Shown here: one piece after another, positions 63,211-64,000 of the stretch
How positions within the stretch are numbered: position 1 is the first letter of the stretch
Layout of the letters: every line of letters begins with the position of its first letter
DNA from: Escherichia coli
Lineage (GTDB): Bacteria; Pseudomonadota; Gammaproteobacteria; Enterobacterales; Enterobacteriaceae
DNA: 64,000 nucleotides
Reading direction: 5' to 3' (one strand)
Assembly: GCF_013315695.1 (NCBI RefSeq)
Contig: NZ_CP054353.1
Position numbers and translations under genes: made by a program
The notes under the pieces: generated by a model
The model's database searches: none
Told to the model about the DNA's origin: nothing
What the model saw: the letters and a program-made list of their open reading frames with translations, nothing else

Positions 63211-64000
63211 CATGAGCAAAATATCAGATTTGAATTATTCTCAACACATTACATTAGCCGACAATTTTAAACAAAAAAATGAAGTCTTAGATACCTGGTA
63301 TGTGGGAATGAATGATTTTGCCCGAATTGCCGGGGGGCAGAATAGCAGAAGCAATATTCTTTCTCCTAGAGCATTTTTGGAGTTTTTGGCAAAGATATTT
63401 ACCTTGGGTTATGTGGATTTTAGCAAACGCTCCAACGAAGCGGGTAGAAATATGATGGCTCATATTGAGTCCTCATCTTATTCTAAAGATACTGATGGCA
63501 ATGAAAAAATGAAGTTTTACATGAATAATCCTGAAGGGGAGCGAGCGGATTTATCTAAGGTGAAGATAGAAATTACACTTGCCTCAGTTTCTACTAAAGG
63601 GATTCGTGAAGGACATACAGTCATTATATTTAAACAATCTGATGGTTCGACTAATCGTTATGAAGGGAAGTCTTTTGAAAGAAAAGATGATAGTTCATTA
63701 CACCTGATTACTAACAAGATTCTGGCGTGTTACCAACGCGAAGCTAACAAGGAAATAGCGCGTCTATTAAATAATCATCAGAAGTTAAATAATCTACAGA
63801 AGTTAAATAATCTACAGAAGTTAAATAATCTACAGAAGTTAAATAATCTACAGAAGTTAAATAATATACAGGAGTTAAATAATATACAGGAGTTAAATAA
63901 TTCGCAGGAGTTAAATAATTCGCAGGAGTTAAATGATTCGCAGGATTTAAATGATTCTCAGGAGTTAAATAACTCGCAGGACTTAAATAATTCGCAGGTG
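63211..64000 (+). CDS. yjgL: YjgL, uncharacterized AT-rich protein; 5' part only, runs off the window
   Basis: Open frame from ATG 63211 to window end, MSKISDLNYSQHITLADNFKQKNEVLDTWYV...; contains the tandem repeat array below. Confidence 0.75.
63760..64000 (+). repeat. In-frame 18-bp tandem repeat array inside yjgL (hexapeptide Q-K/E/D-L-N-N/D-x), at least 13 units, truncated by the window end
   Basis: cagaagttaaataatcta x5, then caggagttaaataatata x2, caggagttaaataattcg x2 and further degenerate units. Confidence 0.9.

Follow-up and report, generated by a model that had tools for sequence, protein, structure and literature searches.

Close to the end of the window, by which we mean the whole 64,000-nucleotide stretch of Escherichia coli DNA that was analysed, the open reading frame yjgL runs into a series of 18-bp tandem repeats. 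This raises the question as to whether the repeat is genuine and variable between strains, whether it has been encountered before, and what the number of its units means for the protein that carries it. Our results favour a reading in which the array is an in-frame variable number tandem repeat (VNTR) that is already known as a typing marker, encodes a linker, and gains or loses whole units by slippage or recombination with mostly neutral effect. We place the probability of this overall reading at roughly 90%.

Anatomy of the array

Tandem Repeats Finder reported a single array at 63767-63998 with a period of 18, 12.9 copies, 91% matches, no indels and a score of 252. When read in the register L-N-N-x-Q-x, exactly 13 head-to-tail units fill 63767-64000, which brings the end of the array to the last base of the window. 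The unit consensus is TTAAATAATTCACAGGAG and the encoded hexapeptide L-N-N/D-x-Q-E/K/D. A scan of the 64 kb with the pattern TTAAATAATNNNCAGNAG, allowing up to two mismatches, returned the 13 consecutive array positions plus one unrelated site, where shuffled sequence is expected to yield 0.4 matches and none of 100 shuffles reached 14. The in-frame 18-bp array that the original prediction described is real. The predicted start at 63760 falls a trivial 7 bases early. The tally that had been offered, five QKLNNL, two QELNNI and two QELNNS units followed by a mixed set, is essentially right, with units 2-5, 6-7 and 8-9 identical within each block and units 10-13 differing (Table 1). The last two units, LNNSQD and LNNSQV, correspond to those retained in short three-unit alleles. 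In the full gene of JP538, the closest genome, the thirteenth unit LNNSQV is followed by the non-repetitive sequence SCKGSVDS..., and the window therefore holds the complete array.

Table 1. Features of the repeat array, its gene and its surroundings in the window.
Feature	Position	Strand	Basis
Complete 18-bp tandem array, 13 in-frame units in yjgL	63767..64000	+	Tandem Repeats Finder, unit table, pattern scan, primer mapping
Four identical units TTAAATAATCTACAGAAG (LNNLQK), units 2-5; three in JP538	63785..63856	+	Unit table, unit comparison
Two identical LNNIQE units (6-7), then two identical LNNSQE units (8-9)	63857..63928	+	Unit table, unit comparison
Four diverged 3' units LNDSQD, LNDSQE, LNNSQD, LNNSQV (10-13, all different)	63929..64000	+	Unit table
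5' part of yjgL (icaR ortholog), 263 codons, running off the window	63212..64000	+	ORF from ATG at 63212 without stop; annotated homologous loci
tabA, upstream neighbour	62637..63089	+	Window 62600 = JP538 locus position 4001, with tabA there at 4038-4490
VNTR-34 forward primer site	63713..63739	+	3 mismatches here, 2 in O157:H7; primers from PMC8461963
CVN002 forward primer site	63653..63674	+	2 mismatches here, 0 in K-12 and O157:H7; primers from PMC8143711; reverse site past window end

The only ORF over the array is that of yjgL, with which the array is in frame. Across the array two of the six frames are free of stops, + frame 1 and - frame 3; among the five frames other than that of yjgL, three have at least one stop per unit and a fourth has three stops. 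Although - frame 3 is stop-free, it was rejected as coding, as the minus strand of JP538 has no ORF over the array that begins with a start codon and reaches 30 aa. Within the units, no variation occurs in codons 1 and 2 (Leu, Asn) or in the Gln codon, placing Leu, Asn and Gln at positions 1, 2 and 5 in 13 of 13 units, and change is concentrated in codon 4 (H/L/I/S) and codon 6 (K/E/D). The invariant residues could reflect a constrained peptide, or merely units that are young. Overall the encoded peptide is 31% Asn, 22% Leu and 17% Gln.

The AT-richness noted at the outset was confirmed, GC content being 28% in the array, 34% in the part of yjgL within the window and 51% in the window as a whole. 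Such composition, together with the report that genes of the icaR class are H-NS/MxiE regulated in Shigella (PMC9769918), could be taken to mean that the array acts at the level of DNA, its AT-rich periodic units being bound by H-NS or a different regulator, or forming an intragenic regulatory element, with coding incidental. However, yjgL is AT-rich along its whole length and not in the array alone (25-36% GC between flanks of about 50% in the full locus), and no promoter- or terminator-like sites were found in the array. The variation within units is also structured by codon, and the yjgL frame stays open through all 13 units while four of the other five have stops. We consider a DNA-level role very improbable, and read the array as coding sequence.

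The yjgL locus

Of 5,426 complete E. coli genomes, 4,816 gave a megablast match to 62600-64000, annotated as tabA followed by yjgL ('protein YjgL'). JP538 is 99.4% identical at the DNA level over 1.4 kb with the same gene neighbours, in the order ridA-pyrI-pyrB-pyrL-yjgH-bdcA-bdcR-tabA-yjgL-argF(argI)-rraB-yjgM-yjgN, and its full-length translation gives a YjgL of 602 aa. The tabA neighbour fixes the conserved context bdcR-tabA-yjgL-argI. The locus is absent from approximately 12% of complete E. coli genomes, in line with its reported absence from B2 strains. At the protein level, an alignment of YjgL/IcaR sequences has a mean column identity of 74%, and the yjgL allele of the window is approximately 93% identical to the O157 allele over the query region.

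Annotation around this locus is uneven. PGAP names for yjgL alleles are inconsistent and include 'protein YjgL', 'DNA-binding protein' and 'hypothetical protein'. The ornithine carbamoyltransferase gene 3' of yjgL (JP538 locus 6477-7481 and equivalents) carries the PGAP label argF. The gene at that position downstream of yjgL in K-12 we take to be argI, and the discrepancy is presumably a naming quirk only. The distinction should be borne in mind with the reported 'duplication of argF' in icaR-negative B2/D strains.

Copy number among strains

The original prediction held that copy number would differ between strains and alter protein length. Repeat number was not identical across diverse strains, and sampled E. 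coli carry from 1 to 15 units. Among the loci fetched for direct counting, 13 units are present in the window, in JP538 and in the K-12 type strain 7A, 9 in O157:H7 F7386, 3 in PO06101 and 1 in RL465, where a single unit means that there is no array. Equal counts conceal differing composition. JP538, despite its close identity to the window, lacks one of the window's LNNLQK units and carries an extra LNDSQD unit, and the 13 units of 7A are more degenerate (81% matches).

Two wider samples give the distribution of alleles, with unit number inferred in both from the length of the matched span. Of the 4,787 genomes with the locus, 59 were sampled at even spacing; in these, 3 units (27 genomes) and 1 unit (18) were followed by 13 (6), 9 (4), 12 (3) and 8 (1). 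Among the best 60 genomes by nearness to the window allele (95.9-98.7% identity), the counts were instead 13 units (26 genomes), 12 (20), 10 (6), 9 (4), 15 (3) and 11 (1). These distributions are samples of 5,426 genomes in which laboratory K-12 derivatives swell the 13-unit class. Overall, sampled complete genomes have 1 (no array), 3, 8-13 or 15 units, with a maximum of at least 15, and even three O157:H7 genomes differ from each other at 13, 12 and 9.

The variation carries through to the protein. In 120 database proteins an anchored segment spanning this region measures 26, 40, 46, 52, 58, 64, 70, 76 or 82 residues, and it measures 100 residues in the allele class of the window. From 40 residues upwards the lengths move in sixes, and the 26-residue class is the allele without an array. 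Length differences between array-bearing alleles therefore amount to whole hexapeptides, and the reading frame is always kept.

Identity with established typing markers

The array is the known multilocus VNTR analysis (MLVA) locus VNTR-34, also called Vhec2, TR6 and O157-34, as well as CVN002, and is not a new discovery. Typing schemes for O157:H7 that include this locus are reportedly those of Lindstedt 2003, Noller 2003 and Keys 2005 and the PulseNet protocol, and CVN002 is said to form part of generic E. coli MLVA (Lindstedt 2007; Lobersli 2012, GECM-10). Outbreak investigators have made use of the polymorphism to type O157:H7 since 2003 and generic E. coli since 2007, and it has little weight as a discovery.

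In the literature the repeat has been in use as a typing marker for about twenty years (PMC3321953, PMC3777172, PMC8143711). A published table places VNTR-34 (Vhec2, TR6) in ORF Z5865, giving it a unit of 18 bp, 8 alleles and a range of 4-12 repeats (PMC3321953), and the unit is likewise 18 bp in a second source (PMC3768571). A placement of VNTR-34 in Z5935 is wrong, since Z5935 holds VNTR-17 and Z5865 holds VNTR-34. In O157:H7 F7386 the PulseNet VNTR-34 primers (PMC8461963) flank the yjgL array; each has 2 mismatches, and together they define a 225-bp amplicon. In the window the reverse primer site would begin at 63978 and finish 9 bases past the window end. The match in EDL933 is annotated yjgL, and its inferred 12 units correspond to PulseNet allele 10 by the size ladder, which agrees with the published Vhec2 value of 10 for this strain (PMC3777172). 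The window array therefore shares with VNTR-34 its 18-bp unit, its gene (ORF Z5865 being yjgL), its polymorphic copy number and its flanking primers in O157:H7. It differs in that the window is not O157, shows three forward-primer mismatches and a reverse site cut by the window end, and has a unit composition found nowhere else: the exact array occurs in none of the 5,426 complete genomes, with a best match of 98.7%.

The CVN002 primers AACCGTTATGAARGRAAGTCCT and TCGCCCAGTAAGTATGAAATC (PMC8143711) match K-12 and O157:H7 without mismatch on either side of the array, with products of 488 bp (allele 12) in K-12 and 416 bp (allele 8) in O157:H7. Here too the unit in the published formula is 18 bp, and the primers bracket the yjgL array. 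The numbering differs, in that both K-12 and the allele class of the window come out as 12 by the formula, against 13 units counted. The window allele would be 11 in the VNTR-34 nomenclature and 12 in that of CVN002. The absence of the locus from about 12% of genomes and from B2 agrees with the null alleles published for CVN002 in ST131 (B2).

The history of the locus as a marker also provides an estimate of its stability. In a serial passage study no change was seen at Vhec2, giving a rate of at most 4.4e-5 per generation, against rates of up to 1.8e-3 per generation at other MLVA loci in the same study (PMC3777172). Point mutations within VNTR units were also noted in serial-passage work. 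Slow turnover combined with point mutation within units fits the mix of young identical and older diverged units seen in the window. Low instability also bears on the notion that the repeat might be a contingency locus, with slippage switching yjgL on and off by phase variation, as could be suspected of a coding tandem repeat in a virulence-associated gene family acquired horizontally. However, a unit of 18 bp is six codons, so that adding or removing units leaves the frame intact, and every difference among the sampled alleles amounts to complete hexapeptides. With instability this far below that of other MLVA loci, a switching role is scarcely credible, and the array is best understood as a length polymorphism within an open frame.

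Origin of the variation

Adjacent units in the array differ by a mean of 1.5 nt, compared with 3.35 nt for all pairs of units, and none of 10,000 shuffles of the unit order reached 1.5. Neighbouring units thus resemble each other far more closely than units paired at random, which is the mark of growth by local duplication, and the block of identical LNNLQK units is the youngest part of the array. In an outgroup Escherichia, with pyrBI about 92% identical to that of E. coli, the ortholog is syntenic though fragmented and lacks a tandem repeat, which marks the long arrays as derived expansions. Repeated expansion, as had been proposed for the array, is borne out by the adjacency of identical units, by their distances and by the outgroup. 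Units are gained and lost whole, in frame and beside their parents, and close alleles differ in the units that they carry. New units would arise by slipped-strand mispairing during replication, by unequal recombination between near-identical 18-bp units, or by both; the two routes are indistinguishable from sequence.

In-frame coding minisatellites are familiar from bacterial surface and secreted proteins, where the unit is a multiple of three, the encoded peptide is of low complexity and length polymorphism proceeds by whole units. The yjgL array resembles this class in these respects, and YjgL is not known to lie at the surface or to have an adhesive or antigenic role.

Variation in copy number is probably mostly neutral, in a gene that is transcriptionally silent in E. 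coli lacking MxiE/IpgC. The gene is often decayed, with a frameshift in PO06101 (locus 4613-6193) and an IS5 insertion in ES4, and in the outgroup Escherichia it is split into three ORFs of 214, 204 and 101 aa (locus 4001-5588). Frequent decay of yjgL fits weak selection on the gene.

Two genomes listed in RefSeq as 'E. coli', SCPM-O-B-9504 and SCPM-O-B-7615, have pyrBI 99.5% identical to that of the outgroup GCA_028622315.1. The other 5,422 matching genomes all lie below 95%, the next among the matches listed being at 92.0%. These two strains may belong to another Escherichia species or cryptic clade.

The YjgL/IcaR protein

The Shigella ortholog of yjgL is icaR (gem3). The protein had been described as having no known function, which holds for its biochemical function but overlooks that Shigella IcaR is an MxiE/IpgC-activated substrate of the type III secretion apparatus (T3SA; PMC9241512, PMC9769918). 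In Shigella, an IcaR truncated by an IS is still secreted via its N-terminal signal, and in E. coli icaR orthologs are silent without MxiE/IpgC and switched on when both MxiE and IpgC are supplied (PMC9241512). The likeness of YjgL to Shigella flexneri IcaR lies in the same gene and locus and a conserved N-terminal region, with low GC, MxiE/IpgC-dependent expression and T3SA secretion as reported; the difference is that the Shigella protein is truncated by an IS, and that secretion was shown experimentally for Shigella IcaR only (PMC9241512). The lengths of icaR orthologs are reported to differ between phylogroups by 'internal and carboxy-terminal additions' (PMC9241512). These internal additions are the yjgL array, although the word 'tandem' has no occurrence in the main text of that paper and no link to the MLVA loci is made there. 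VNTR-34, CVN002 and the internal additions of IcaR orthologs are therefore one and the same array, which the cited literature does not bring together.

The icaR MxiE box is reported to be well conserved in E. coli orthologs. The MxiE-box consensus GTATCGTTTTTTTANAG, which is the published consensus and not the box of icaR itself, has no match in the whole window at up to three mismatches. Its best match in the tabA-yjgL intergenic region (63090-63211) is AGAGCGTTTTTTGATAT at 63137-63153 with 5 mismatches, which is not evidence for a box.

Within the protein the array occupies residues 186-263, between a conserved N-terminal domain (approximately residues 1-185) and an all-helical C-terminal domain. 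The structure prediction that had been suggested as a check was run with AlphaFold2 on 35 close homologs and yielded a weak model (mean pLDDT 54.9, pTM 0.35) with an alpha/beta N-terminal part and an all-helical C-terminal part. The pLDDT is 22-48 in the array, whereas parts of the domains on either side reach 60-86. Taken at face value these values are compatible with the array peptide being a polar, N/Q-rich, flexible and poorly ordered spacer between two domains, the length of which would be tolerated over a wide range. A disordered linker is nevertheless not secure on this model, which is poor overall and draws the first half of the array as a helix running on from residue 163. It is also too weak for a confident assignment of the fold.

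Searches with the protein point to a narrow family. Foldseek with the YjgL model against the PDB gave no match at E <= 0.001, only generic helical-repeat matches, and Pfam and NCBIfam scans of full-length YjgL returned nothing over curated cut-offs. The SopA-like central domain PF13981 scored 15.8 bits (E 0.019) in JP538 and 20.5 bits (E 6.7e-4) in RL465, below the gathering threshold of 27 bits, and was rejected; precomputed database tags, unlike these sub-threshold scores, do list PF13981 for YjgL proteins. A FAM222A match over the repeat was discarded as a low-complexity artefact. An exhaustive HMMER search across 1.84 billion cluster representatives yielded a single full-length one and fragments, the 214-aa outgroup ortholog at 47% identity being the sole other match of note; a 352-aa match (P0187) was a spurious repetitive sequence. 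Judged from these representatives the family is an Escherichia/Shigella orphan, which precludes a deep alignment of YjgL.

Could the number of hexapeptides nonetheless be of use to the protein, by tuning the spacing or flexibility of its domains or by varying a surface or antigenic segment, such that selection shapes copy number? Secretion of the Shigella ortholog by the T3SA (PMC9241512) and the invariance of Leu, Asn and Gln in all units are points in favour, as are the recurrence of 13 units in three alleles of differing unit composition and the dominance of 12-13 units among the best 60 alleles nearest that of the window. A preferred length might be suspected from the fact that 13 units are commonest near the window allele (26 of 60) and recur in the K-12 allele, which is much more diverged; ancestry, together with the abundance of K-12 laboratory strains among the genomes, could also account for this. 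However, around three quarters of sampled genomes with the locus have just 1 or 3 units, and the IS-truncated Shigella IcaR is still secreted (PMC9241512). The gene is also silent in E. coli without MxiE/IpgC and often a pseudogene, as in PO06101 and ES4, and the cited literature links no phenotype to repeat number. We regard selection on linker length as unlikely. The more specific proposal that the number of LNNxQx units is non-neutral, setting how far apart or how flexibly joined the secretion-competent N-terminal and the C-terminal helical domains are, seems a shade less probable again. If true, it would mean that O157:H7, phylogroup A and other strains with 8-15 units have a functionally different protein from the majority with 1 or 3. 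As the array lies in the ortholog of a T3SA substrate, natural alleles with 1, 3 or 8-15 units provide ready-made variants for the study of IcaR/YjgL.

Allele families and a second repeat

At least three families of yjgL alleles are present in E. coli, with no array, with 3 units and with an expanded array. Their C-terminal halves are far more diverged than the N-terminal 190 residues (locus L004 4612-6207 compared with JP538 locus 4613-6421), and for many 3-unit proteins BLASTP reaches just 58-59% of the query. This divergence may reflect a mosaic or recombinant history. A second short repeat, with a unit of 15 bp, lies in the C-terminal coding region at JP538 locus 6068-6096 (1.9 copies) and K-12 locus 6057-6096 (2.6 copies), and could be another small in-frame length polymorphism.
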